Below, piece after piece: positions 12,849-32,079 of a stretch of DNA of 64,000 bases; position 1 is the stretch's first letter; the number at the start of each line of letters is the position of its first letter. Both the position numbers and the translations under genes were made by a program. Origin of the DNA: Actinomycetota bacterium. GTDB lineage: Bacteria; Actinomycetota; UBA4738; HRBIN12. The stretch is taken from the NCBI GenBank assembly GCA_041287635.1, contig JBGGNG010000057.1, forward strand, positions 54,062 through 118,061, written 5' to 3'. The notes beneath the pieces were generated by a model, which searched no databases, was not told the DNA's origin, and saw only the letters and a list, made by a program, of their open reading frames with translations.

Positions 12849-13289
12849 TCAGATGACGTCGTCCGGCAGATCCAGGGGTTCCCACGAGGGATCGGGGCGC
12901 CACGACGGCCAGTCGAGGTCGAACGGGGGTTCGTGCAAGACGATGTGCTCGATCGCGCGTTCCCCCGCCCACCGCACCCCGTGGGCGTCGGCGCGGGTGA
13001 GCAGTCCCCGCTCGACCGCCTCGGCGAGCTCGTGCTCGTCCTTCCATTCGTAGGTGTCGCGTGCGGGCGGGATGCGCACGTCGAGGAACCAGTCGGTGTA
13101 GTCGAACGTGTCGCCGTGTCGACGCAGGGGCGACTGGATGTTCACGTAGTACCCCTCGAACGCCCAGTCGGCGCTCCAGGAGAGCAGGACGGCGTAGGCG
13201 GTCTCGGGGAACGAGAACGACAGGACGGGTCGGTCGCGGACCTTCTGCTCGAGCTCCCACGGTTCCTCCAGGAACCGGACCTCGCCCAT
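12849..13289 (-). CDS. DUF402 (FomD/YgaC-like) protein; true start uncertain
   Basis: C-terminal part of ORF 12849..13811 has the DUF402 hallmark (FEGYYVNIQSP...DYTDWFLDV...WKDEHEL); the only in-frame ATG is at 13289 but homology-like sequence (TVVTLRELWQGRP...) continues upstream to ~13475 with no canonical start, so a non-canonical start or frame error is possible. Confidence 0.45.
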   Translation of the reverse strand: MGEVRFLEEPWELEQKVRDRPVLSFSFPETAYAVLLSWSADWAFEGYYVNIQSPLRRHGDTFDYTDWFLDVRIPPARDTYEWKDEHELAEAVERGLLTRADAHGVRWAGERAIEHIVLHEPPFDLDWPSWRPDPSWEPLDLPDDVI

Positions 13290-14775: not shown

Positions 14776-14831
14776 TTGACGGATGTCGCAGGCTGGGCGT
14801 ACATTCATCCTCCGCTCGAACACATGTTCGA
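14776..14831 (+). promoter_or_regulatory. sigma-A-like promoter (TTGACG-18-TACATT) immediately followed by a perfect actinobacterial LexA/SOS box TCGAACACATGTTCGA
   Basis: TTGACG at 14776-14781, TACATT at 14800-14805, 16-bp palindrome TCGAAC-ACAT-GTTCGA at 14816-14831; lies in the divergent region between rocD and the dnaE2 cassette. Confidence 0.6.
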
Positions 14832-14872: not shown

Positions 14873-15118
14873 GTGACGAAACGATTCGACGAGGAGATCA
14901 GTGTCGAACGTGACACCGGCATGCCGAGCGCGTTCGAGTGGCGGGGCAACCGCTACGAGGTCGCCGACGTGATCGGGCGGTGGAAGATCGAGGGCCGGTG
15001 GTGGTCCGACGGCCGCGATCGCGAGTACTGGCGGGTCGAGGCACGCGGCGGCGCGGTCTGGGACCTCTACTTCGACCGGGCCAGGGACCGCTGGCACATG
15101 GAGCGCCTGTGGGACTAG
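14873..15118 (+). CDS. small conserved hypothetical protein (81 aa) heading the SOS-box-fronted cassette
   Basis: GTG at 14873 with GAGG 8 nt upstream; VTKRFDEEISVERDTGMPSAFEWRGNRYEV...GRWWSDGRDREYWRVEARGGAVWDLYFD has a Trp/Arg-rich globular look; the ORF-track N-terminal extension overlaps the SOS box and is unlikely to be translated. Confidence 0.45.
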   Translation: MTKRFDEEISVERDTGMPSAFEWRGNRYEVADVIGRWKIEGRWWSDGRDREYWRVEARGGAVWDLYFDRARDRWHMERLWD

Positions 15119-15142
15119 CGCTCAAGAAGGTAGCGTGGCGAG

Positions 15143-15823
15143 GTGCGCGTCATCCCCTTCCTGGTCTCCGAACTGCGGCTGCCCGATGCGGAGCGGGAGC
15201 TCCTGGGGGTCGAGTGGTGGCCGTCGTACGGGCACGCGGTCGAGCATCCCGAAGGGATCTTCCTGTTCGACAACGGGGCCGGCTACGGCAACGCCGAGAT
15301 CGACGCGACGTTCTCGCCACGAGTCCGCCCGGTCGAGTATGCCCTCGGCGAGGCCGGCATCTCGCTCGCCGACGTGACGGGAGCGGCCAACTGCCACCTG
15401 CACTTCGATCATTGCGGGCAGAACACGCGGCTGCGAGGCATCCCGATCTTCGTACAGCGCACCGAGTGGGCCATGGTGTGCGAACCCGATTACACGGTGC
15501 CCGAGTGGATCGACGTGCCGGGGCTCACGTACGAGCTCCTCGACGGCGAAGCCGAGGTCGCATCCGGCATCCGGCTTGTCCCGACGCCGGGACACACCGC
15601 AGGACACCAGTCGGTGGTCATCGACGCGCCGGGGGGTGCGATCGTGCTCGCCGGCCAGGCGGTGCAGTCTCGCGAGGAGTGGCAGGGAGCCGAGGGTCCC
15701 GACGCATCGGGCCGATCGAGCGCGCCAGACCCCGACGCGTATGCACGATCGGTCGATCGCTTGCGGCTGCTCGACCCGGTCCGCGTGCACTTCGCGCACG
15801 ACCCCTCGATCTGGCAGCGCTGA
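15143..15823 (+). CDS. metallo-beta-lactamase-fold hydrolase
   Basis: 226 aa with HLHFDHCG (HxHxDH) and a downstream His (PGHTAGH). Confidence 0.7.
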   Translation: MRVIPFLVSELRLPDAERELLGVEWWPSYGHAVEHPEGIFLFDNGAGYGNAEIDATFSPRVRPVEYALGEAGISLADVTGAANCHLHFDHCGQNTRLRGIPIFVQRTEWAMVCEPDYTVPEWIDVPGLTYELLDGEAEVASGIRLVPTPGHTAGHQSVVIDAPGGAIVLAGQAVQSREEWQGAEGPDASGRSSAPDPDAYARSVDRLRLLDPVRVHFAHDPSIWQR

Positions 15824-15895
15824 GTGACGTCTCCTCGCTAGGGCACCGACTCGAAGCCTTCCCGGCGGAAGTCGGGATCGAACACGAGTGACGAC

Positions 15896-18800
15896 ATGAC
15901 GGCTCCGTTCGTGCACCTCGACGTTCGGTCGTGCTTCTCCCTGAAGGAAGGTGCGTTCACCACCGAGCAGCTCGCGGCGCGCGCGGCAGCGAACGACATA
16001 CCGGCCGTGGCCATGACCGATCGCGACGGGCTCTACGGCGCCGCGCGGTTCGTGCGGGCGTGCGAGGCCGAGGGCGTGCGGCCGATCCTGGGTGCGTCGA
16101 TCACCGTGCGCGCGAGTGCACCCCCACCGGGTGACGCGCACGTGGTGCTCCTCGCGACCGACGACACGGGGTACGCGAACCTCTGCCGGCTGCTCACCGA
16201 CGCGCACATGCTCGGCGAGCGCGGCGACCCCTGGGTCGACCCGATGCAGATCTGCGCGCACGCAGCGGGGCTCGTCGCGATCGCCGGACCTCGGTCGCAA
16301 CCGGGGCGAGCGGCCGCCCAGGGCCGCGTCGACCACGCCACACGGATGCTCGACCCGTTCCGCGAGGCGTTCGGGCGTGAGCGGCTCTTCGTCGGCGTCG
16401 AGCAGCGGCTCGAACGCGGATCGAACGACGAGACCCGCGCGATGCTGCGCCTCGCCGAGCGGGCCGGCGTCGGCGCCGTCGCGACGAACCCGGTGCGCTA
16501 CCTCGAGCCCGGCGACGCGTTCGTGGCCGACGTGCTCGAGTGCATGCGGCGACTCGTGCCGCTCGCCGAGACGAACGTCACCCGGCGCAACGCCGAGGGC
16601 TGGCTGAAGCCCGCCGCCGAGATGCGCGCGCTCTTCGTCGAGCGCCCCGACCTGTGTGACGCGACGCTCGAGGTCGCCGACATGTGCCGGTTCGACCTGG
16701 GGCTCGGGCGCATCCACTTCCCCGATTTCCCGACGCCGCAGCGCCGCAGCGCCGATGCTGTGCTCGCCGAACGGTGCTGGCGGGGGGTGCACGAACGCGA
16801 GATGCGTGAGGACGAGCGTCTGCGCGACCGGCTGCACCACGAGCTCTCGATGATCCGGCGCATGGGATTCGCGGCGTACTTCCTCACCGTGGCCGACATC
16901 GTCGCCGACGTGAAGGCGATGGGCATCAGGGCCGCGTGCCGGGGGTCGGCCGCCGGATCGCTCGTGTGCTACCTGACGGGCATCTCCGACGTCGACGCGC
17001 TCCGCCACGACCTGTCGTTCGAGCGGTTCATGAATCCGATGCGCAAGGACCTTCCCGACATCGACATCGATGTCGAGTCAGCGAGGCGTGAGGACGTCTA
17101 CGACATGATCCTCGGCCGCCACGGGGAAGAGCGCGCAGGCTGCGTCGCGATGATCGACACGTACCGCGCGCGCTCGGCGATCCGCGAGGTCGGCAAGGCG
17201 CTCGGGCTGCCCGATACCGAGGTCGGTGTCGTCGCGAAGTCGTTCCCGCACATCTCGGCGCGACACCTGCGCGAGGCGATCGAGCGCCTGCCCGAACTGG
17301 CGGACATCAACCTCCGCTTCGAGCAGATGCAACGCCTGATCGGCGTCGCCGAGAGGATCGGCGGCTTCCCGCGACATATCGCGCTGCATCCCTGCGGTAT
17401 CGTGCTCGCGAGCCACGACCTGGTCGAACGCGTACCGCTGGAGCGCAGCGCGAACGGCCATCGCATGATCCAGGCCGACAAGGACGACGTCGAGCTGCTC
17501 GGCTACCTGAAGCTCGACATCCTCGGCGTGCGCATGCTGAGCTCGATGCGACACGCGCTCGACGAGATCGCGCGCACGACGGGGGAGAAGGTCGACCTCG
17601 ACCGCATCGCGCTCGACGACCCCGCCACGTTCGAGCTCGTTCGCGCGTCCGATACGCTCGGGTGCTTCCAGATCGAGTCGCCGGGCCAGCGTGAATTGCT
17701 GCAGAAGCTCCAGCCCGACCGCTGGGAGGACCTGATCGTCGACATCTCGCTGTTCCGGCCCGGGCCGGTGAAGTCCGACATGATCACGCCCTACCTGCGA
17801 CGTCGCTCGGCGTTCGAGCGTCCGACGTATATCCACCCCGGGCTGCGCGGGCCCCTGCAGGAGACGTACGGGGTGATCGTCTTCCACGAGCAGGTGATCA
17901 GGGCGCTCGCCGCGCTCGCCGGCTACACCGAGACCTACGCCGACCACATCCGGCGACATCTCGATCGCGACGACCTGCTGCCGGGCTTCGAGGCCGACTT
18001 CATCGAGCGCGCGGTCGCCCGTGGCGTCGATCGCGATGCGGCCGCCGAGGTCTGGCATGCGGTGACGCAGTTCGCGAGCTTCGGCTTCTGCAAGGCGCAC
18101 GCGGCAGCGTTCGCGGTGCCGACCTACCAGAGCGCGTGGCTGAAGGCGCACCATCCGGCTCACATGTATGCCGGCCTGCTGACCCACGACCCAGGCATGT
18201 ACCCGCGTCGCACGATCCTCGACGACGCCCGCCGTCACGACATCCCGATCCTGGCGCTCGACGTGAACCGCAGCGAGCCGGAGTACGTGGTCGAGGAGGT
18301 CGAAGGACGATGGGGCATCAGGCTCGGGTTCCAGGATGTGCACGGCATCAGCGGCGCCGAGATCCGCTCGATCCTGATGGCGCGCGCCGACCGAGCGTTC
18401 CGCGACGTGGGCGACTTCATGCGGCGCACCACCGTGAGCCGTCCGGTGACCGAGGCGCTGGCGCATGCCGGCGCGTTCGACGCGCTCGAGCCGGCTCGCC
18501 GTCGCCACCTCTACGTGGCGATGACCACCGAGGCCGAGCGCGAGGGTGATCAGCTCACGCTCACGATGGGCGCCGATCCGGCCGAGGGGCACCGGTTCAC
18601 TGACTACTCCGACGCCGAGGTGGTGCGCGCCGAGCTCGAGGTGCTCGGACTCGACGCCACACGGCACATCGTGAGCTTCTACGAGCCGCTCCTCTGCGAC
18701 CTCGGGGTCACGCGCTCGAGGGATCTTCGCTCCGCGCGCGGCGGCTCGAAGGTGATCGTCGCGGGCGTGAAGGTCGCCTCGCAGACCCCGGCGATCCGCA

Positions 18801-19126
18801 GCGGCCAGCGCATCATCTTCCTCACGCTCGACGACGCGACGGGGCCGGTGGAGGTGACGGTGTTCGAGTCGGTGCAGCCCAAGGTGGCGACGACCGTCTT
18901 CCACGGGTACGCGCTCGCGGTCGCGGGCGAGCTCAGACGCACCGGGGTCGGCGGCGTGAGCGTGGTCGCCGAGGAGGTCTGGGATCTGTCGGCGTTGCAT
19001 CGGGCGCGTGCCGAGGGCCGTCTGCGCGAGGCCGTGCGCTGCCAGTCGTGGGACAGGGCGAACTCGACACCCGCCGGCGCCGGGCCGCGCTCGCTCTGGC
19101 ACGCGAGCCCCGGCTCCGCGGGATGA
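15896..19126 (+). CDS. dnaE2: error-prone DNA polymerase DnaE2 (ImuC)
   Basis: 1076 aa; N-terminus VHLDVRSCFSLKEGAFT...AMTDRDGLYGAARF matches the DnaE2 PHP-domain pattern (LHxHSxxSxLDGA...TDHDGLYGAxRF); ImuC-like size, shorter than DnaE1. Confidence 0.85.
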   Translation: MTAPFVHLDVRSCFSLKEGAFTTEQLAARAAANDIPAVAMTDRDGLYGAARFVRACEAEGVRPILGASITVRASAPPPGDAHVVLLATDDTGYANLCRLLTDAHMLGERGDPWVDPMQICAHAAGLVAIAGPRSQPGRAAAQGRVDHATRMLDPFREAFGRERLFVGVEQRLERGSNDETRAMLRLAERAGVGAVATNPVRYLEPGDAFVADVLECMRRLVPLAETNVTRRNAEGWLKPAAEMRALFVERPDLCDATLEVADMCRFDLGLGRIHFPDFPTPQRRSADAVLAERCWRGVHEREMREDERLRDRLHHELSMIRRMGFAAYFLTVADIVADVKAMGIRAACRGSAAGSLVCYLTGISDVDALRHDLSFERFMNPMRKDLPDIDIDVESARREDVYDMILGRHGEERAGCVAMIDTYRARSAIREVGKALGLPDTEVGVVAKSFPHISARHLREAIERLPELADINLRFEQMQRLIGVAERIGGFPRHIALHPCGIVLASHDLVERVPLERSANGHRMIQADKDDVELLGYLKLDILGVRMLSSMRHALDEIARTTGEKVDLDRIALDDPATFELVRASDTLGCFQIESPGQRELLQKLQPDRWEDLIVDISLFRPGPVKSDMITPYLRRRSAFERPTYIHPGLRGPLQETYGVIVFHEQVIRALAALAGYTETYADHIRRHLDRDDLLPGFEADFIERAVARGVDRDAAAEVWHAVTQFASFGFCKAHAAAFAVPTYQSAWLKAHHPAHMYAGLLTHDPGMYPRRTILDDARRHDIPILALDVNRSEPEYVVEEVEGRWGIRLGFQDVHGISGAEIRSILMARADRAFRDVGDFMRRTTVSRPVTEALAHAGAFDALEPARRRHLYVAMTTEAEREGDQLTLTMGADPAEGHRFTDYSDAEVVRAELEVLGLDATRHIVSFYEPLLCDLGVTRSRDLRSARGGSKVIVAGVKVASQTPAIRSGQRIIFLTLDDATGPVEVTVFESVQPKVATTVFHGYALAVAGELRRTGVGGVSVVAEEVWDLSALHRARAEGRLREAVRCQSWDRANSTPAGAGPRSLWHASPGSAG

Positions 19127-19133
19127 TGCTGGG

Positions 19134-20351
19134 ATGACCGGCCGATCACGAGGCCAGGCCTTGCCCGACGAGCGCCCGCCCGAACCGATCCTGCACGCCG
19201 ATCTCGATGCGTTCTACGCCTCGGTCGAGATGCTGAAGGACCCGTCGCTCGCCGGGAAGCCGGTGATCGTCGGTGGCGTGGGCGGCCGTGGGGTCGTGAG
19301 CTCGGCGTCGTACGAGGCCCGCGGGTTCGGCGTGCGCTCGGCGATGCCCACGGTGCGAGCGCGCCGGCTCTGCCCCGACGGCGTTTTCGTGCCACCCGAC
19401 TTCGAGGCGTACCAGGCGCACTCGAACCGGTTCCGCGAGGTGCTGCTCGCCCACACGCCGTTCGTCGAACCGATCTCCCTCGACGAGGCGTTCCTCGACG
19501 TCGGCGGGGCCACGATGCTGTTCGGCGACCCGCGGGTGATCGCCGCGCGCATCCGGGCCGAGGTCGAACGCGAGGTCGGGGTCACGTGCTCGGTCGGGGT
19601 CGCGCCGACGAAGTTCGTGGCCAAGCTCGCCTCCGACCACTGCAAGCCCAACGGGATGCTCGTGGTGCCGGCGGACGGCGTGCTCGGATTCCTCGAGCCG
19701 CTGCCGGTCGGCCGGCTGTGGGGCGTGGGGGAGAAGACCGGCGAGGTGCTCTCGCGTCTGGCGGTGCGCACGATCGGCGACCTCGCCGCGACCCCCGAGC
19801 CGATCCTCGCGCGCCTGCTCGGCGAGCAGCACGCTCGGCATCTGACGCGGCTCGCCCACGGTGTCGACGACCGCCACGTCGTGCCCTACGAGGCGCCGAA
19901 GTCCGTCGGCCACGAGGAGACGTTCGAGGTCGACCTCGACGACGACGAGACCCTCCTGCGCGAGCTCTTGGCGCTCTCGGGGAAGGTGGCGTCGCGGCTG
20001 CGTGCCGACGGATATCGCGCCCGCACCGTGACGATGAAGGTGCGACTGGCGACGTTCACCACGCTCACGCGGTCGAAAACGTCGAACGACCCCACCGACG
20101 TGGGCGCGGATCTCTACCACACGGTCGCCGAGCTCTACCGCGCCCTGCCGGGGGAACGCCGGCGTGTGCGCCTGCTGGGGGTGCAGGCGAGCGGGTTGGT
20201 GTCCGCGGGCGCCGAGCAGCTCGCCCTGCTGCGCGGGGAGCGGTGGGGCGACGTGGAACGGGCCGTCGACCGCATCGAGCATCGGTTCGGGCGTGGCGCG
20301 GCGATGCCCGCCTCGCTGCTCGATCGCTCTCGGCGTGACCGGCCGATCTGA
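19134..20351 (+). CDS. dinB: DNA polymerase IV (Y-family, catalytic residues present)
   Basis: ATG at 19134, 8 nt after the dnaE2 stop; ILHADLDAFYASVEM and SLDEAFLDV catalytic motifs; 405 aa. Confidence 0.85.
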   Translation: MTGRSRGQALPDERPPEPILHADLDAFYASVEMLKDPSLAGKPVIVGGVGGRGVVSSASYEARGFGVRSAMPTVRARRLCPDGVFVPPDFEAYQAHSNRFREVLLAHTPFVEPISLDEAFLDVGGATMLFGDPRVIAARIRAEVEREVGVTCSVGVAPTKFVAKLASDHCKPNGMLVVPADGVLGFLEPLPVGRLWGVGEKTGEVLSRLAVRTIGDLAATPEPILARLLGEQHARHLTRLAHGVDDRHVVPYEAPKSVGHEETFEVDLDDDETLLRELLALSGKVASRLRADGYRARTVTMKVRLATFTTLTRSKTSNDPTDVGADLYHTVAELYRALPGERRRVRLLGVQASGLVSAGAEQLALLRGERWGDVERAVDRIEHRFGRGAAMPASLLDRSRRDRPI

Positions 20352-26288: not shown

Positions 26289-26771
26289 ATGGGACGTGCG
26301 CTCGTCCTCAACGCGACCGATCTGCCGCTGGCGGTGGTGCCAGCGCGTCGTGCCGTCGTGCTCGTGCTGAAGGAGAAGGCCGAGGTCGTGCTCTCCAACG
26401 GCATGATCTTCCATTCCGAGCGCCTGGTGCTCGAAGCCCCATCGGTCGTGCGCCTCCGCCGATACGTGCGCGTACCGTACCGTCCGCACGCCCCGCTCAC
26501 GCGCCGTGCGGTCTTCGCCCGTGATGAGTGGGCGTGCCAGTACTGCGGCGCGTCCGCCGAGAACCTCGATCACGTGTTGCCGCGCTCGCGGGGCGGGATG
26601 CACGTGTGGGAGAACGTGGTCGCCGCCTGTCGCCGGTGCAACGCGAAGAAGGAAGACCGCACGCCCTCCGAGGCCGGCTTCCACCTCGCTCGCCAGCCGT
26701 TCGCGCCCCGTGACGGCTTCCACCTCACGCTCGGCCATCTCGAGCCGGGCTGGGAAGACTTCCTGGTCTAG
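26289..26771 (+). CDS. HNH endonuclease family protein
   Basis: CQYCG...DHVLPRSRGG...WENVVAACRRCNAKK HNH zinc-finger nuclease motif; 160 aa standalone. Confidence 0.7.
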   Translation: MGRALVLNATDLPLAVVPARRAVVLVLKEKAEVVLSNGMIFHSERLVLEAPSVVRLRRYVRVPYRPHAPLTRRAVFARDEWACQYCGASAENLDHVLPRSRGGMHVWENVVAACRRCNAKKEDRTPSEAGFHLARQPFAPRDGFHLTLGHLEPGWEDFLV

Positions 26772-26836
26772 TCACGCCCCCTCTGCCCTGGTTCCCTCAC
26801 CGGTCGCCCGGCCTTCCCGGGTCGTATGCCCTCTGC

Positions 26837-26859
26837 CCGAACACATGTTCACGTTGACG
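26837..26859 (+). promoter_or_regulatory. SOS-box-like palindrome GAACACATGTTC abutting a TTGACG -35 element upstream of mraZ
   Basis: cCGAACACATGTTCac at 26837-26852, its 12-nt core identical to the perfect LexA box at 14816; TTGACG at 26854-26859, possible -10 ATAAAC ~18 nt downstream. Confidence 0.45.
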
Positions 26860-26914
26860 TGGTGGAGTGATAGTGGCATAAACGTGTGGCTTAGTGGAGG
26901 AAAGGGGAGGAGGC

Positions 26915-27343
26915 GTGGCCGAACTGCTCGGCACGCACAGCTACCAGCTCGACCCGAAGGGCAGGGTCTCGCTCCCGGCGAAGTTCCGGGCCGCGTTCGT
27001 CGACGGCTGCTGGATCACCGTGGGCCAGGACCGCTGCCTCTACGTCTTCCCCAGGGCCGAGTGGCAGCGGCGATCCGACGAGGTCGCGTCGTCTCCCCTT
27101 TCCGACACGGACGGCCGTGCGTACTCGCGCATGTTCTTCGGCTCCTCCGAGGAGGCGAAGCTCGACGGTCAAGGGCGGGTCACGATCCCGCAACGCCTTC
27201 GGGAAGCCGTCGGCATCGACAAGGACGTCGTGGTGCTCGGCGTGCGCGACCGCATGGAGATCTGGAACCGCGAGACGCACGAGAGCTACACGGCCGGATT
27301 CGCCGATGCGTACCAGACCGGTGCGCTCGAACCCAGGAGGTAG
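26915..27343 (+). CDS. mraZ: transcriptional regulator MraZ
   Basis: GTG at 26915 after AGGGGAGGAGG; LLGTHSYQLDPKGRVSLP and a second DxxGR repeat (LDGQGRVTIP). Confidence 0.85.
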   Translation: MAELLGTHSYQLDPKGRVSLPAKFRAAFVDGCWITVGQDRCLYVFPRAEWQRRSDEVASSPLSDTDGRAYSRMFFGSSEEAKLDGQGRVTIPQRLREAVGIDKDVVVLGVRDRMEIWNRETHESYTAGFADAYQTGALEPRR

Positions 27344-27350
27344 GGCGCAC

Positions 27351-27497
27351 ATGGCAACGACGGTTCCCGGTCCACGACGTCTCGAGCCGACCAGGCTCGG
27401 GGCGGAGGTACGACAGAGCCTGACCCTGATCGGCCTGACGGCGCTCACGCTCCTCGCCTCGATCGGCATCGGCATCCTCGCCGGGCAGCTCGGTTGA
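27351..27497 (+). CDS. possible small single-TM protein between mraZ and rsmH (48 aa)
   Basis: ATG 8 nt after the mraZ stop with AGGAGG 13 nt upstream; [48 protein letters not shown]; stops 1 nt before the rsmH start. Confidence 0.3.
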
Positions 27498-27498
27498 C

Positions 27499-28410
27499 GT
27501 GGGGGAGCGGGATGCGACGGGGGCGGCGGCTGATGCGGTCGCGCCGCACGACCCCGTCATGGTCGCCGAGGTGGTCCGCTTCCTCGTCGGCGACGCTCCG
27601 CGCACCGGGACGGTCGTGGACATGACGCTGGGAGCGGGTGGGCACACCGAGGCGCTGCTGCGCGCGGGCGCCGACCGGGTGATCGGCATCGATCGCGACG
27701 CCGAGGCGCTTGCCGTCGCCGACGAGCGGTTGGCCCCGTACGGCGAGCGGTTCCGCTCGGTCAGGACGACGTTCGACGAGGTGGACGGCGCGGTCACCGG
27801 CGGGCCTGTGGACGGCCTGCTGTACGACCTCGGGGTCTCGTCGATGCAGCTCGATCGGGCCGAGCGCGGGTTCAGCTATCGCGACGACGGTCCGCTCGAC
27901 ATGCGCATGGCGGGCGCCGACGACGACGAGCCCTCGGCCGCCGACCTCGTGAACTCGCTACCCGAAGGTGATCTCGCCGACCTGATCTACGAGCTCGGGG
28001 GCGAACGTCACTCGCGCCGCATCGCCCGGGCGATCGTCCGACGCCGGCCGATCACCACCACCGACCAGCTCGCCGGCGTGGTCGTGGGCGCCGTGGGACG
28101 ACGGCCGGGGGGCCCCCACCCCGCGCGTCGCACGTTCCAGGCGCTCCGCATCGCGGTCAACCGGGAGATCGAGGAACTCGCCGCCTCCCTGCCTCAGGCG
28201 GTCGGGCTCCTCGCTCCCGGGGGCCGCGTGGTCGTGATCGCGTACCACTCCCTCGAGGACCGCGTCGTGAAGACGACGTTCCGCGAGGATGACCGCCTCA
28301 CGGTGCTGACGAAGAAGCCGCTGCGTCCGCCCGAGGAGGAAGTCGCTCGGAACCCTCGTGCGCGCAGCGCGATCTTCCGCGCCGCCCAGCGAGCCGAGGC
28401 GGCCGCGTGA
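27499..28410 (+). CDS. rsmH: 16S rRNA (cytosine1402-N4)-methyltransferase
   Basis: HDPVMVAEV...[14 protein letters not shown]...[13 protein letters not shown]-methyltransferase motifs; canonical second gene of the dcw cluster. Confidence 0.85.
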
Positions 28411-28835
28411 GCGTTCCGGCACGGAACCTCCCCGCACCCCGGTCGCCTGCGCGCGCAGCGCGACCCGCGGCGCGCCCGACACCCTCCACCCCTCCCCAGC
28501 GTCGGGCGCGCCGCGGGTCCACCCCGGCGTTCTGGCTCCTCTCGGCCGCGGTCGTGTCTGCACTCGTGTTCGTCGTCGTGGGGCTGAACGCGATGGTCGT
28601 GAACACGACCTACCGGACGGAGGCGATCGACCAGCGGGTGCGGACCCTTCAGGAACGGAACGAGGAGCTCGACATCGAGGTCGCCCGCCTCTCGTCGCCC
28701 TCGCGGATCGCTGAATGGGCCGACGTCGTCGGCATGGTCGCGCCGGGCCCCGGTGAGTCGGTGATCCTGCGGGTTCCGGGTGAGCGCTCGCGCTGGTCCG
28801 CCTCGAACGGCGAGGGTGCGGGAGGGGGAGGATGA
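28407..28835 (+). CDS. ftsL: cell division protein FtsL-like
   Basis: 142 aa, Pro/Arg-rich N-terminus, one TM helix, coiled-coil ([19 protein letters not shown]); position between rsmH and ftsI; GTG overlaps the rsmH stop. Confidence 0.6.
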
Positions 28836-30541
28836 CCCGCCCGCCGGTCACGAGGCTCATCGCGATGCTCGCGTTGATGCTGCTCGCCTTCGGCGGCATC
28901 GTCGTGCGGTTGGCATTCCTGCAGGTGCGCGACAACCCCGAGCTCGAGGCGATGGGGCTGCAGCAGCGCGTTCGGACGACCACCCTGCCCGCCCAGCGCG
29001 GGGAGATCGTCGATCGCTCGGGCGTGCCGCTCGCCGTCACGCGGGAGGCCCGCGACATCTACGTGGACCCCCGTGACGTCGTGGACCCACGCGCCGAGGC
29101 CGAGACGATCGCCGAGGTCCTCGATCTGCGCGCCCGGGAGGTGCGGACGGCGCTCGAGAGCGACGGCACGTTCGCCTTCATCGACCGACAGGTCGACCTC
29201 GATGTCGCGGAGGAGCTCGAGAGCCTGTCCCTGCCCGGCATCGGGTTCCTCGAGGTGCCGAAGCGCTACTACCCGGCCGGGGCCCTCGCGGCGCAGGTGC
29301 TGGGGTTCGTGAACGTCGACGGGGAGGGTGCCGCCGGGCTGGAGAGCGCCTTCGACGACGCGCTCGCGGGTACCCCAGGTGAGCGCACCGCCGAGATGTC
29401 GGCCGACGGGCTGCCGATCTCGAGCGGGCTCGACACGCTCGTCGAGCCGGTGCCCGGCTCGACGATGCATACGACGATCGACCGGCAGATGCAGTACATG
29501 GTGCAGACCGCGCTCGAACGAGCGGTGAAGGACAACGGAGCCCTGGGCGGCACGGCCGTCGTGATGGACCCGGCCACGGGCGAGGTGCTGGCGATGGCCA
29601 CCTACCCCTGGTTCGACCCGAACGAGTACAGCGAGGCGCCGGTCGAGGCGATGCGCAACCGCGCGGTGACCGATACGTTCGAGCCGGGCTCGGTCAACAA
29701 GATCATCACGGCGGCGGCGGCGCTGGAGACCGGGGCGGTCTCCCTCGAGGAGCGGTTCCGCGTGCCCGCTTCGATGAAGGTCGGGCCGTTCACGATCCGT
29801 GACTCGCACGAGCATCCGGTGGAGTCGATGACGATCGGGGACATCATCACGGAGTCGAGCAACATCGGCGCCGCGCTGATCGCCGAGCAGGTGGGAAGCG
29901 TGACGCTCGGCTCCTTCATGGAGAAGTTCGGATACGGCAGTCCGACCGGAGTCGGGTTCCCGGGCGAAGCGGCGGGCGTGCTGCTGCCCGGTGAGAGCTG
30001 GGACGAGGTGATCCGCGCGACGGTCTCCTACGGTCAGGGCATCTCTGTGACCCCGCTGCAGATGGCCAACGTCTACGCCACGATCGCCAACGGCGGGCGC
30101 TGGATGCAGCCGACGCTCGTGCGCGGCTTCGAGGCACCCGACGGCGCGTTCGCCGAGGCCGACGCGAGACGGACCCACCGGATCATCCGCCCCGATACGG
30201 CGCAACTGCTCACGAGCATGCTCGCGTCCGCCGTGGAGGAGGGGACGGGCGTGAACGCCCAGATCCCCGGCTACCAGGTCGCGGGCAAGACCGGCACCTC
30301 GCGCAAGCTCGATGCGTACGGCCACTACGTGCAGCGGTACCATGCCTCGTTCGCCGGGTTCCTGCCCGCCGCCGACCCTCGCGTGGTGATCGCGGTCTCG
30401 ATCGACGAGCCCCGCACCGTCTACGGCGGCCTGGCGGCGGCGCCTCTGTTCCAGGAGATCGCTCGGTACGCGATCCAGCGCCTCGCGATCCCCGCTGCAC
30501 CCCCGGTGGCCCTGCCGCCGAACGCATCGGGAACCTCCTGA
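28832..30541 (+). CDS. ftsI: peptidoglycan D,D-transpeptidase FtsI (class B PBP)
   Basis: TM anchor, PBP dimerisation domain, transpeptidase motifs (SVNKII STxK, SSN, KTGT). Confidence 0.85.
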   Translation: MTRPPVTRLIAMLALMLLAFGGIVVRLAFLQVRDNPELEAMGLQQRVRTTTLPAQRGEIVDRSGVPLAVTREARDIYVDPRDVVDPRAEAETIAEVLDLRAREVRTALESDGTFAFIDRQVDLDVAEELESLSLPGIGFLEVPKRYYPAGALAAQVLGFVNVDGEGAAGLESAFDDALAGTPGERTAEMSADGLPISSGLDTLVEPVPGSTMHTTIDRQMQYMVQTALERAVKDNGALGGTAVVMDPATGEVLAMATYPWFDPNEYSEAPVEAMRNRAVTDTFEPGSVNKIITAAAALETGAVSLEERFRVPASMKVGPFTIRDSHEHPVESMTIGDIITESSNIGAALIAEQVGSVTLGSFMEKFGYGSPTGVGFPGEAAGVLLPGESWDEVIRATVSYGQGISVTPLQMANVYATIANGGRWMQPTLVRGFEAPDGAFAEADARRTHRIIRPDTAQLLTSMLASAVEEGTGVNAQIPGYQVAGKTGTSRKLDAYGHYVQRYHASFAGFLPAADPRVVIAVSIDEPRTVYGGLAAAPLFQEIARYAIQRLAIPAAPPVALPPNASGTS

Positions 30542-32079
30542 TGGCTACCGGCCGGCGGCCGGGGGCGCGGGTAAGCTCGGAACCGGTGGCTTCCCCGTCG
30601 GTGTCCCCCCCATCCGCGCCTGCGTTCCCGCCGATCCCCCTCTCGGCGCTGGTCGACGCCGTCCCCGACGCCGAACCTCGGGGCGACACGGCGCTCTCGA
30701 TCCTCGACGTCGCCTACGACTCCCGCGCCGTCGGCACCGGTGCCTTGTTCTGCTGCGTGCAGGGCGCGACGGCCGACGGGCACGACTTCGCTCGCGCGGC
30801 GCTCGATGCGGGCGCCGCCGCGCTCGTCGTCGAGCGTTGGCTCGATGTGGCGGCTCCGCAGGTGCTCGTCCGCTCGGTCCGCGAGGCGATGGGGCCGATC
30901 GCGGCCCGGGCGTTCCGTGATCCCGCCGAGGCGATGACGATGCTCGGAGTCACCGGGACGAACGGGAAGACCACCACGACGTACCTGGTGGAGGCGATCG
31001 CCCGTCGAGCGGGCGTGCGCCCGGGAGTGATCGGCACGACGGGAGCTCGCGCCGATGGGGAGCCGCTCCCGCTCGACCGCACGACCCCCGAGGCTCCGGA
31101 TCTGCACCGGCTGCTGGCCCGCATGCGCGACGGCGGCGTCGGTCTCGTGGCGATGGAGGCGTCGTCGCACGCGCTCGACCAGCACCGGGTCGACGGGGTG
31201 ATCTACGACGCGGTCGCGTTCACGAACCTCTCCCAGGATCACCTCGACTTCCACGCGTCGATGGAACGGTACTTCGCGGCCAAGGCGGCTCTGTTCACGT
31301 CCCGGCACGCTCGCCGGGGACTCGTCAACGCGGACGACCGGTGGGGCCGTCGGCTGCTGACGTCGCCCGAGATCCCGGTGTCGACGTTCGCGGTCGACGT
31401 CGACGCCGACCTGCGCGCCGTCGACGTCGAGGTCTTCGCGTCCGGGATCGCCTTCCGGATCGACGGACTCGCGGTGCGCTCCTCGTTGCGCGGCGCGTTC
31501 AACGTCTCGAACTGCCTGGCCGCGATCTCGCTGGGGCGAGCCGTGGGCCTGCCCGACTCGGCGATCGTCGAGGGCATCGCCGACGTGCGTGCGGTGCCGG
31601 GCCGCGTGGAGCCGGTCGACGAGGGTCAGGAGTTCCTGGTGGTGGTGGACTACGCCCACACGCCGGATAGCATCCTCGGCGTGCTGCAGGCCACGCGCCC
31701 GCTGGCCACGGGCCGGCTGATCGTCGTGTTCGGTTGCGGAGGAGACCGCGACCGCGCCAAGCGACCCTTGATGGGGAAGGCGGCGACCTCGACAGCCGAC
31801 CTGACGATCATCACCTCGGACAACCCTCGCTCCGAGGATCCGGCCGAGATCATCGCGGCGATCGAGCCCGGTGCGATCGAGGGCGGCGGCGACTACGTGA
31901 TCGAGGCCGATCGCCGGGCCGCGATCGCCCGCGCCGTGGGAGATGCAGCGCCCGGCGATGTGGTCGTGATCGCCGGCAAGGGCCACGAGCCGACCCAGGA
32001 GATCGCCGGTCGAACGATCGAGTTCGACGATCGTGGCGTCGCCCGCGCGGAGCTCCGAGCGCTCGGGGGTCGGGCGTGA
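30541..32079 (+). CDS. murE: UDP-N-acetylmuramoyl-L-alanyl-D-glutamate--2,6-diaminopimelate ligase
   Basis: Mur ligase motifs GVTGTNGKTTTTYL, DYAHTPDS, DNPRSEDP; ATG overlaps the ftsI stop. Confidence 0.85.
   Translation: MATGRRPGARVSSEPVASPSVSPPSAPAFPPIPLSALVDAVPDAEPRGDTALSILDVAYDSRAVGTGALFCCVQGATADGHDFARAALDAGAAALVVERWLDVAAPQVLVRSVREAMGPIAARAFRDPAEAMTMLGVTGTNGKTTTTYLVEAIARRAGVRPGVIGTTGARADGEPLPLDRTTPEAPDLHRLLARMRDGGVGLVAMEASSHALDQHRVDGVIYDAVAFTNLSQDHLDFHASMERYFAAKAALFTSRHARRGLVNADDRWGRRLLTSPEIPVSTFAVDVDADLRAVDVEVFASGIAFRIDGLAVRSSLRGAFNVSNCLAAISLGRAVGLPDSAIVEGIADVRAVPGRVEPVDEGQEFLVVVDYAHTPDSILGVLQATRPLATGRLIVVFGCGGDRDRAKRPLMGKAATSTADLTIITSDNPRSEDPAEIIAAIEPGAIEGGGDYVIEADRRAAIARAVGDAAPGDVVVIAGKGHEPTQEIAGRTIEFDDRGVARAELRALGGRA

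Follow-up and report, generated by a model that had tools for sequence, protein, structure and literature searches.

The window, i.e. the whole 64-kb stretch of DNA analysed here, contains mraZ and the body of the dcw operon behind it, an HNH endonuclease gene upstream of mraZ, and an SOS cassette with a perfect SOS box. Four parts make up the control region in front of mraZ: a LexA-type 16-mer, the hexamer TTGACG, an extended -10 and four GTGG boxes. The features are as follows:

14816–14831, no strand assigned: reference SOS box, perfect TCGAACACATGTTCGA, about 10 nt 3' of the -10 of TTGACG (14776) - 18 nt - TACATT (14800)
14873–20351, plus strand: SOS cassette of DUF6504, an MBL-fold hydrolase, DnaE2 and Pol IV (DinB) (Pfam, NCBIfam)
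26289–26771, plus strand: upstream HNH endonuclease gene (Pfam HNH_5), ending 68 nt before the dyad
26837–26852, no strand assigned: candidate LexA-type operator, 16-mer CCGAACACATGTTCAC, with the core GAAC-ACAT-GTTC at 26839–26850
26854–26859, plus strand: TTGACG, inferred -35 hexamer of the mraZ/dcw promoter (TTGAC invariant in 80 of 80 relatives), 17 nt from CATAAA
26862–26899, plus strand: four direct GTGG repeats, predicted MraZ boxes, starting at 26862, 26873, 26884 (GTGT) and 26894, with a period of 10-11 nt
26874–26882, plus strand: predicted extended -10, TGgCATAAA, placed by its spacing (GTGGCATAA invariant across relatives)
26915–27343, plus strand: mraZ, 142 aa (Pfam MraZ, E = 1.2e-33), GTG start, GGAGG ribosome binding site at 26906–26910
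27351–27497, plus strand: conserved 48-aa ORF between mraZ and rsmH, single-pass membrane protein
27499–28410, plus strand: rsmH (mraW) (Pfam), dcw operon body
28407–28835, plus strand: ftsL-like gene (Pfam), dcw operon body
28832–30541, plus strand: ftsI (Pfam), dcw operon body
30541–32079, plus strand: murE (Pfam), dcw operon body

Two alternative starts of mraZ, at 26894 (the longest ORF) and at 26906, were rejected, both being too early in comparison with the GTG at 26915. The 48-aa ORF that follows would be co-transcribed from the mraZ promoter. It is found in 77-78 of 81 loci, and its nucleotide diversity at the three codon positions is 0.19, 0.09 and 0.42. The protein has no match in Pfam or NCBIfam, and it matches 21 small-protein clusters among 1.84 billion representatives.

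A scan with the sigma-70 consensus did not call the mraZ promoter because its -10 (CATAAA) is without the final T; the promoter was inferred from the invariant arrangement TTGAC - 17 nt - TGgCATAAA over 80 loci, and transcription would be predicted to start near 26889. A promoter of the ECF-sigma type (GGAAC - 16-18 nt - GTT) was rejected by inspection, as the motif reads CGAAC with a spacing of just 10 nt.

From the spacer of the promoter, the predicted MraZ boxes run across the -10 and the predicted start site into the 5' UTR. MraZ-autoregulated Pmra promoters with GTG(G/T) boxes are found in E. coli and B. subtilis. The arrangement also resembles the MraZ-autoregulated Pmra of M. genitalium, where the repeats bound by MraZ are direct, read GTG(G/T) and have 6-nt spacers and a period of about 10 nt (PMC12957436): here, too, direct GTGG repeats recur every 10-11 nt across the core promoter. 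Unlike Pmra, the promoter has an additional LexA-type inverted repeat fused 5' of the -35, and thus two separate inputs. Given that this inverted repeat lies no more than 10 nt from the first MraZ box, MraZ itself might bind it within an autoregulatory operator, an alternative that the preliminary description had raised. However, the dyad lacks GTGG and its repeat is inverted, whereas MraZ takes direct GTG(G/T) repeats, and the four repeats sit apart from it, downstream, where every one of the 80 relatives retains them, also the 14 without a dyad. The alternative thus finds no support in the sequence, and we regard it as highly improbable.

The 12-mer GAACACATGTTC occupies 26839–26850, and a second copy lies at 14818–14829. 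The preliminary description had placed the dyad 3 nt 5' of a TTGACG -35 element and about 75 nt from mraZ. Both distances hold: the dyad ends at 26850 and TTGACG begins at 26854, while the first base of the dyad lies 76 nt before the GTG at 26915. The full 16-mer CCGAACACATGTTCAC ends one base short of TTGACG. With up to one mismatch allowed, the 12-mer occurs twice in the window against an expectation of 0.07, a number that none of 100 shuffled sequences reached; the naive expectation is 0.001. The looser motif GAAC-N4-GTTC occurs at three sites (0.64 expected; reached in 3 of 100 shuffles), an enrichment that is weak on its own. Only two of these, the mraZ dyad and the 14816 box, are intergenic within the 64 kb. 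The third, TCGAACGGGGGTTCGT at 12919, was rejected as a possible SOS box, since it lies within a minus-strand coding sequence (...HEPPFDLDW...), and we treat it as a chance match.

The site at 14816 is a genuine SOS-type box. It stands before DUF6504, dnaE2 and Pol IV, so that the same genome uses the motif at canonical SOS genes, and in 78 of 79 metagenome relatives it is kept as [TC]CGAAC-N4-GTTCG[AG], with ATAT, ATAC, ACAT, ACAC or ACCT as N4. In many relatives it is followed, about 1 kb downstream, by a second perfect box. The window itself contains no lexA gene in its 64 kb; given the conserved cassette boxes, the genome probably possesses one.

For comparison we used 80 species-level relatives, in which MraZ is 67-100% identical. 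MraZ has 2,690 homologues with E <= 1e-10, and a homologue search yielded only members of the same uncultured lineage, with an identity of at least 75%. As would be expected from the preliminary description, which had proposed a LexA-type site upstream of mraZ, 66 of the 80 relatives possess GAAC-N4-GTTC there at a fixed distance from the -35. This distance is 2-3 nt in the clade of the window and 13-14 nt in most others; the two registers, hereafter the 3-nt and the 14-nt register, differ by 11 bp, i.e. one helical turn. The arms of the dyad are 100% conserved, in contrast to the upstream flank, in which the commonest base accounts for 44-51%. Elsewhere the motif is rare: there are 7-8 other sites in 492 kb of related loci (0.014 sites per kb), and no further intergenic site in the window. 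Three outcomes had been named beforehand as speaking against the proposal; two were examined, a dyad missing from the relatives and a frequent motif, and neither is what we found.

That the dyad is a functionless chance occurrence would be in line with the weak enrichment of GAAC-N4-GTTC in the window. This explanation is nevertheless already refuted by the conservation at a fixed position beside an unconserved flank and by the low background, and its probability is negligible; the comparative evidence is decisive here. The preliminary description had also argued against chance from the reuse of the ACAT spacer at both window sites. Its conclusion stands by virtue of the comparative data, but the reuse does not show that either site arose as a copy of its counterpart: LexA boxes of Actinobacteria have ACAT as their consensus spacer, and both sites therefore match one consensus.

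The fixed distance to the -35 ties the dyad to the promoter, because the distance from the -35 to the upstream gene varies between 51 and 346 nt, although most relatives keep the HNH gene in synteny. We also considered whether the dyad is linked to the HNH gene, e.g. as a site for cleavage, and rejected this: of the 14 dyad-less relatives, at least 7 retain a putative counterpart of that gene, namely an upstream ORF matching it in strand and size. In the clade of the window N4 is ACAT, ACGT, ACCT, ACAC, AGGT or CTGT, of which ACAT, ACAC and ACCT are common to mraZ dyads and cassette boxes. The 14-nt register is typified by the 16-mer TCGAACAACAGTTCGG, with the spacer A[AGT]CA and thus an A at the fourth position. 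A variable spacer between unvarying arms is the pattern to be expected of a site for a dimeric protein. The dyad has been lost at least four times, and is therefore dispensable.

It could be argued that the dyad is no protein operator at all but the apex of a hairpin in RNA or DNA, which might serve the HNH gene as, e.g., a terminator or insulator. In the 14-nt register the palindrome extends outwards by a mean of 4.2 bp and a maximum of 17 bp, folding energies go down to -28 kcal/mol, and a short T-run follows the palindrome in some loci; in most loci the upstream gene is on the same strand. The outer pairs of this register also covary beyond shuffled or slid controls: 37 cells are changed on both sides, compared to 25.5 expected, and 2 of 500 shuffles reached 37. 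However, the clade of the window has no such extension (0 bp in 15 of 15). The stem in the window, 4-5 bp long and half of it A/T, with a loop of 2-4 nt, is unstable and followed by no T-run, unlike an intrinsic terminator with its G+C-rich stem of at least 5 bp and U-tract, and a terminator scan of the window did not call the dyad. The inner five pairs do not vary in 49 distinct sequences, a constancy that structure alone does not need, whereas the outer pairs are unpaired in 30-40% of the sequences. Moreover, it is the distance to the -35 that is fixed and the distance to the HNH stop codon that varies. A scan of the whole window against Rfam at the gathering threshold gave no match, nor did one of 26700–27000 at E <= 10, and the dyad corresponds to no known structured RNA such as the mraW motif of Actinobacteria. 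For the clade of the window we rejected a terminator or hairpin; in the 14-nt-register relatives we retain it, with part of its hallmarks present, as an overlapping feature; as a replacement for a protein operator it is very unlikely.

We consider it likely that the dyad is a LexA operator on the master promoter of the dcw cluster. CCGAACACATGTTCAC has the form of the 16-bp imperfect palindrome of Gram-positive and actinobacterial SOS boxes: compared with tCGAAC-N4-GTTCGa, it matches the core at 12 of 12 positions (8 arm bases and ACAT) and at C2, with mismatches at positions 1, 15 and 16. The operator in front of M. tuberculosis Rv3074, bound by LexA with a KD of 3.9 nM, is TCGAACACATGTTCGA, the same 16-mer as the 14816 box, and the box of M. 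tuberculosis lexA is TCGAACACATGTTTGA (PMC8607333); the lexA footprint found throughout Actinobacteria is aaTCGAACacatgtTCGAAC (PMC2248561). The core 12-mer of the mraZ dyad equals that of the Rv3074 operator and of the Actinobacteria-wide footprint, and this identity with an operator bound by M. tuberculosis LexA supports, indirectly and by analogy, that LexA may bind at mraZ. Two further findings on M. tuberculosis LexA agree with such binding: in vivo it binds sites with up to 3 mismatches, and it directly controls the division genes Rv2719c and whiB2 (PMC3381160). In addition, a gel shift revealed binding of B. subtilis LexA to a site 5' of a human gut microbiome homologue of mraZ (PMC3998124). 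The position in a promoter region and the conservation in orthologous promoters are likewise what a LexA operator would be expected to have.

Compared with the Cheo box of Actinobacteria and other Gram-positive bacteria, TCGAAC-N4-GTTCGA (Rv3074, lexA, recA and dnaE2 in M. tuberculosis), the mraZ dyad shares the 12-nt core with Rv3074 and the ACAT spacer with the lexA operator. Like Cheo boxes it is intergenic, located at a promoter and conserved in orthologous promoters, and the same genome has a perfect box at its dnaE2 cassette. Unlike them it deviates at the outer positions 1, 15 and 16. The C at position 1 is also present in 8 of 78 cassette boxes. The deviation at position 15 speaks against LexA: G15 is invariant in 78 of 78 cassette boxes and conserved in the LexA motif of S. 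venezuelae (PMC9380542). Further points against LexA are the location upstream of the -35 and not over the core promoter, the repeated loss of the dyad, and the frequent palindrome extension with covarying outer pairs in the 14-nt register, where constraints of a hairpin and of a protein site appear to coexist. The cassette box of the window lies at the -10 or the start site, whereas the mraZ dyad abuts the -35, or lies 14 nt off in most relatives.

These differences could be explained if another dedicated dimeric regulator of dcw, and not LexA, recognised CGAAC-N4-GTTCG. The mraZ sites are systematically unlike the SOS-type boxes of the lineage: positions 15-16 are AC, TC or CC in the 3-nt register, and the spacer A[AGT]CA of the 14-nt register is missing from all 78 cassette boxes. 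Moreover, a placement 5' of the -35 and the helical phasing of two registers are typical of dedicated activators. On the other hand, the core is that of a validated LexA operator, and the mismatches are within the number LexA accepts in vivo; in the window, the 3 kb on either side of mraZ contain no regulator gene, and no other factor recognising GAAC-N4-GTTC was found in the literature. To our knowledge LexA is the sole binder of this motif described in Actinobacteria or Firmicutes. We therefore regard a different regulator as improbable.

A connection between LexA and mraZ in Actinobacteria was not found in the literature. The ChIP-seq study of M. tuberculosis LexA, with 25 sites, does not mention Rv2166c (mraZ) (PMC3381160), nor is mraZ mentioned in the S. 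venezuelae LexA paper (175 sites) or in those of its supplementary tables that were consulted (PMC9380542). Unlike those 25 M. tuberculosis sites, the mraZ dyad would have the dcw master promoter as its target. There is, however, a precedent from gut Firmicutes. The site described by Cornish et al. (2014) belongs to the same target family (COG2001) and the same type of LexA motif, and these authors proposed that SOS control of division via MraZ has evolved repeatedly in Gram-positive bacteria (PMC3998124). Their evidence was a single gel shift from a human gut metagenome; ours is a sequence footprint over 66 species of an uncultured soil lineage of Actinomycetes, with its promoter geometry and two phased registers.

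The retention of the LexA-type site by most relatives suggests that, in this lineage, DNA damage may act directly on cell division. The direction of such control can be viewed in two ways: if LexA binds, repression appears somewhat the better founded, with activation a substantial second possibility. On the one hand, a LexA dimer at the dyad would occupy about -52 to -37, where it would collide with sigma region 4 on the -35, and the promoter would be held down jointly by LexA and MraZ autorepression. Upon DNA damage, RecA-stimulated LexA cleavage would lead to more mraZ, more of the 48-aa membrane protein and more transcription of the downstream genes. Excess MraZ acts as a division inhibitor in other bacteria, and raised mraZ would therefore delay division. 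The physiological logic is ambiguous, however: a simple repressor site would turn on mraZ and the dcw operon during the SOS response, because DNA damage removes LexA. Furthermore, steric repression is not assured, because in most relatives the dyad occupies about -63 to -48, shifted upstream by 11 bp on the same helix face, where it is clear of the -35.

Alternatively, LexA may be a positive factor at the dcw promoter, aiding RNA polymerase from upstream of the -35, which we regard as possible though rather unlikely. The dyad would have been centred at about -55 ancestrally and at about -44 in the clade of the window, one helical turn apart, and activation by LexA would mean that DNA damage lowers dcw transcription: self-cleavage of LexA would directly reduce transcription of the division and cell-wall operon. 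In a related variant, the co-transcribed 48-aa membrane protein would be an SOS-controlled division effector. This would resemble the activation of whiB2 by LexA in M. tuberculosis, with the dcw operon as the target instead. Smollett et al. (2012) found that M. tuberculosis LexA represses Rv2719c (chiZ) and activates whiB2, a case which demonstrates that LexA can act positively and that damage lowers expression of a gene required for division (PMC3381160). M. tuberculosis LexA thus acts directly on division-related promoters, as would LexA at mraZ; its targets there are an accessory inhibitor and a WhiB regulator, whereas the target predicted here from sequence would be the first dcw operon promoter.

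Dedicated SOS division inhibitors include SulA, YneA, DivS, SidA, SosA and ChiZ. If LexA represses, the mraZ locus would resemble them in that damage induces MraZ and a small membrane protein, both potential types of division inhibitor. Unlike them, mraZ and the 48-aa gene are not single genes devoted to LexA control but open a housekeeping operon, dcw, as its first two genes, and both are kept in relatives without the dyad.

Many Actinobacteria have no recognisable SOS-induced division inhibitor (PMC9380542). A LexA-type operator on the mraZ/dcw promoter would offer a concrete and testable route from DNA damage to division in a large and abundant uncultured soil lineage. It would extend the idea of a repeated recruitment of MraZ to SOS regulons in Gram-positive bacteria, for which one gel shift from a gut metagenome was previously known. 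If LexA is an activator here, the lineage would possess an SOS division checkpoint without a dedicated inhibitor protein, acting on the dcw operon itself. The two phased registers and the independent losses, of which there were at least four, constitute a natural experiment on how the position of an operator relative to the -35 may relate to the action of LexA.

The 12-mer GAACACATGTTC occupies positions 26839-26850 of the window, inside the 16-mer CCGAACACATGTTCAC (26837-26852), and is followed by ACG and then by TTGACG (26854-26859). The mraZ gene behind it (Pfam MraZ, E = 1.2e-33) starts at GTG 26915 with GGAGG at 26906-26910, which places the onset of this GAAC-N4-GTTC dyad 76 nt 5' of the start codon. 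An identical 12-mer lies at 14818-14829, within a perfect TCGAACACATGTTCGA (14816-14831), so that the recurrence reported in the preliminary description, 3 nt from TTGACG at mraZ, is indeed found at both places. With at most one mismatch the 12-mer occurs twice in the window against 0.07 expected, a count reached by none of 100 shuffles (the naive expectation for the 12-mer is 0.001), and three copies of the looser GAAC-N4-GTTC are present where 0.64 would be expected. The third copy, TCGAACGGGGGTTCGT (12919-12934), with one mismatch to the SOS consensus, is taken as a chance match: it falls within a minus-strand coding sequence (...HEPPFDLDW...), which leaves the 14816 and mraZ sites as the sole intergenic pair in 64 kb. 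At 26850-26861 the -35 hexamer is spanned by a short inverted repeat, CACGT-TG-ACGTG; it is shared by most members of the window's clade but missing from some, and is probably incidental. The features concerned are:

14873-20351, plus strand: SOS cassette encoding a DUF6504 protein, an MBL-fold (lactonase-like) hydrolase, DnaE2 and DNA polymerase IV
26289-26771, plus strand: stand-alone HNH endonuclease gene (160 aa), between a MoxR/DUF58/transglutaminase cluster and mraZ
Starts at 26862, 26873, 26884 and 26894: four direct GTGG repeats with a period of 10-11 nt
27351-27497, plus strand: 48-aa ORF, a predicted single-pass membrane protein, between mraZ and rsmH

The box at 14816 lies about 10 nt 3' of the -10 element in a TTGACG - 18 nt - TACATT promoter ahead of the cassette operon. 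The operon represents a canonical SOS mutagenesis cassette, and its operator is placed where a repressor canonically acts; in place of the usual imuA'-imuB-dnaE2 it comprises DUF6504, MBL-fold, DnaE2 and Pol IV genes (in the window and in loci L084 and L110-L160). A metagenome scan with the DUF6504 protein as query yielded 80 relatives, 79 of them with enough upstream sequence, and in 78 of these 79 a [TC]CGAAC-N4-GTTCG[AG] box is present within 120 nt of the start codon, with ATAT, ATAC, ACAT, ACAC or ACCT as spacer; many relatives have another perfect box, TCGAACATACGTTCGA, about 1 kb 3' of the first. The Rv3074 operator of M. tuberculosis is the same 16-mer as the 14816 box and is bound by M. 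tuberculosis LexA with a KD of 3.9 nM, while the lexA operator of that species, TCGAACACATGTTTGA (KD 1 nM), is nearly the same (PMC8607333); the Actinobacteria-wide footprint 5' of lexA is aaTCGAACacatgtTCGAAC (PMC2248561). The conservation of the cassette box and its match to the M. tuberculosis operators indicate that the lineage uses the standard actinobacterial LexA motif. The earlier argument that reuse of the spacer is improbable in itself does not hold, since ACAT is the plain consensus spacer of this motif; the correction makes the LexA assignment stronger, not weaker.

Orthologous mraZ upstream regions were compared in 80 loci from a MraZ genome scan, one per species-level genome and all from uncultured Actinomycetes/Actinomycetota MAGs (MraZ identity to the window's protein 67-100%; L001 is its own or a near-identical genome), aligned on an invariant TTGAC...GTGGAG anchor. 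The dyad is retained directly 5' of the -35 hexamer in 66 of the 80, in two registers: the gap is 3 nt in 13 loci and the window (2 nt in one locus) and 14 nt in 51 loci (13 nt in one). The frequency of the commonest base is 1.00 at all eight arm positions in both classes, 0.85-0.89 in the dyad spacer, 0.64 over the 13 nt between dyad and hexamer in the 14-nt class and 0.44-0.51 in the flank 5' of the dyad. The distance from dyad to hexamer is fixed, whereas that from the upstream gene's stop to the hexamer varies from 51 to 346 nt. Elsewhere within the relatives' 492 kb the pattern occurs at only 7-8 sites (0.014 per kb) and is thus not frequent at random positions. These patterns mark the mraZ dyad as a DNA element tied to the promoter, with a clean phylogenetic footprint.

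On a neighbour-joining tree of MraZ and RsmH the 14-nt register is spread widely and was probably the ancestral state; outside the window's clade the 3-nt register occurs in just one small neighbouring group. The tree places at least four losses of the dyad, one of them in a clade comprising about ten genomes and the others in three individual genomes. The 14 dyad-less genomes (L021, L028-L031, L033, L036, L038, L040, L041, L045, L046, L055 and L068) share a T-rich tract, CC[AT]TTT[CT]...CCGCTG, at about the position of the 14-nt-register dyad, which may represent the remains of a dyad or a replacement resembling an UP element. By protein sequence L021 belongs to the window's clade, yet it has the T-rich upstream module.

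Downstream of the dyad position, TTGAC(G/C), a 17-nt spacer and GTGGCATAA are common to all 80 loci; we read this arrangement as a -35 hexamer and an extended -10 element, TGgCATAAA (26874-26882), with a predicted start near 26889. A consensus promoter scan of the window did not call this promoter because its -10 lacks the final T. The four GTGG repeats overlap the promoter spacer and the putative -10 and continue across the predicted start site into the 5' UTR. MraZ recognises direct GTG(G/T) repeats with 6-nt spacers (PMC12957436), and the GTGG repeats point to a predicted operator of MraZ itself, which is distinct from the dyad and is kept by the 14 dyad-less genomes too. The suggestion that MraZ might use the dyad is therefore rejected: the dyad is an inverted repeat without GTGG, and the MraZ boxes are separate.

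To our knowledge, LexA is the only factor recognising CGAAC-N4-GTTCG in Actinobacteria and Firmicutes. The core of the mraZ site is identical to a validated LexA operator, the SOS cassette of the same organism carries the motif, and the site agrees with an actinobacterial SOS box in sequence, location, conservation and same-genome usage. Of the spacers at mraZ in the window's clade, ACAT, ACAC and ACCT also occur at cassette boxes. Speaking against LexA, the A[AGT]CA spacer of the 14-nt register does not occur among those boxes, and the window site departs at positions 15-16 (AC versus GA). M. tuberculosis LexA tolerates up to three mismatches in vivo (PMC3381160) and has nanomolar affinity for boxes that carry a single flank mismatch (PMC8607333), so that these deviations are compatible with LexA binding. 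LexA probably binds the mraZ dyad with regulatory effect.

A structural role of the repeat has to be weighed against its probable role as an operator. In the 14-nt register, where the conserved core is [TC]CGAAC-A[AGT]CA-GTTCGG, the palindrome extends outward in about 60% of loci (mean 4.2 bp, maximum 17 bp), and the predicted folding energy reaches -28 kcal/mol. In an alignment of 51 such sequences the five inner pairs are invariant and the outer pairs are formed in 55-70%; changes on both sides number 37 cells where 25.5 are expected, with 2 of 500 shuffles getting as high, and slid registers are all lower. An invariant core with covarying outer pairs indicates a facultative stem-loop around a sequence-specific core in these genomes, plausibly a terminator or insulator for the same-strand upstream HNH gene, and suggests that the extended element doubles as operator and terminator/insulator hairpin. 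Some of the L012-L080 loci have a short T-run 3' of the extended repeat, and the LexA-type core there lies about 26 to 15 nt 5' of the -35 hexamer. For the window the structural explanation fails: the extension is 0 bp in 15 of 15 members of its clade, and the bare dyad has no U-tract and can form no stable hairpin. Rfam gave no match at gathering threshold anywhere in the window, nor at E <= 10 over 26700-27000.

The direction of a LexA effect can be read in two ways. On the one hand, LexA, normally a repressor, may repress the mraZ promoter: the window 16-mer stops 1 nt short of the putative -35 hexamer, so that a dimer bound there would be expected to keep sigma region 4 out. In both E. coli and B. 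subtilis an excess of MraZ reportedly blocks division (Eraso et al. 2014 and subsequent studies), which would make SOS induction of MraZ sensible. In C. glutamicum, ftsEX is repressed by MraZ, as cited in PMC5014011. However, if the site served a repressor, SOS would bring up the downstream fts and mur genes as well, against the expected logic, a rise that MraZ autorepression and internal promoters could buffer. Alternatively, LexA may activate the promoter. The ancestral-register operator extends from about -63 to -48 and does not reach the -35 hexamer, and the shift into the 3-nt register amounts to 11 bp, preserving the helical face. Precedents are the LexA-activated division gene whiB2 of M. 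tuberculosis and four genes of C. glutamicum (PMC3381160), and activation is also favoured by the drop of C. glutamicum mraZ mRNA after ciprofloxacin (PMC5055667).

The 48-aa ORF, whose stop codon abuts the rsmH start, is present in 77-78 of 81 loci, dyad-less ones included. Its nucleotide diversity by codon position (0.19 / 0.09 / 0.42) has the pattern usual for a protein under purifying selection; Pfam and NCBIfam gave no match to it, and only 21 small-protein clusters among 1.84 billion representatives match. The usual SOS division inhibitors are small membrane proteins, and since this ORF would be transcribed from the putative mraZ promoter it deserves a separate look; the protein may represent a novel dcw-cluster component in this lineage. 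At the position of the HNH gene, an ORF filter found a plus-strand ORF of similar size in 53 of 80 relatives; the nearest NCBIfam models of the HNH domain are IscB and Cas9 HNH, far below cut-offs.

In the human gut microbiome MraZ (COG2001) is a candidate SOS regulon member, and one of its LexA sites was shifted by B. subtilis LexA (PMC3998124). For Actinobacteria we found no literature report of a LexA-mraZ link: Rv2166c is unmentioned in the M. tuberculosis ChIP-seq study of 25 LexA sites (PMC3381160), MraZ is unmentioned in the S. venezuelae LexA study (175 sites; PMC9380542) and the supplementary tables examined, and the link is absent from the Corynebacterium literature checked. The authors of the S. 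venezuelae study state that no SOS division inhibitor is known in Streptomyces. The operator type was known already, and the target gene had been suggested in gut-microbiome bacteria; here the site is supported by deep conservation across an uncultured soil actinobacterial lineage, with an unusual two-register geometry. With 2,690 MraZ homologues at E <= 1e-10, in a protein search that returned the same lineage only, this soil lineage is very abundant.
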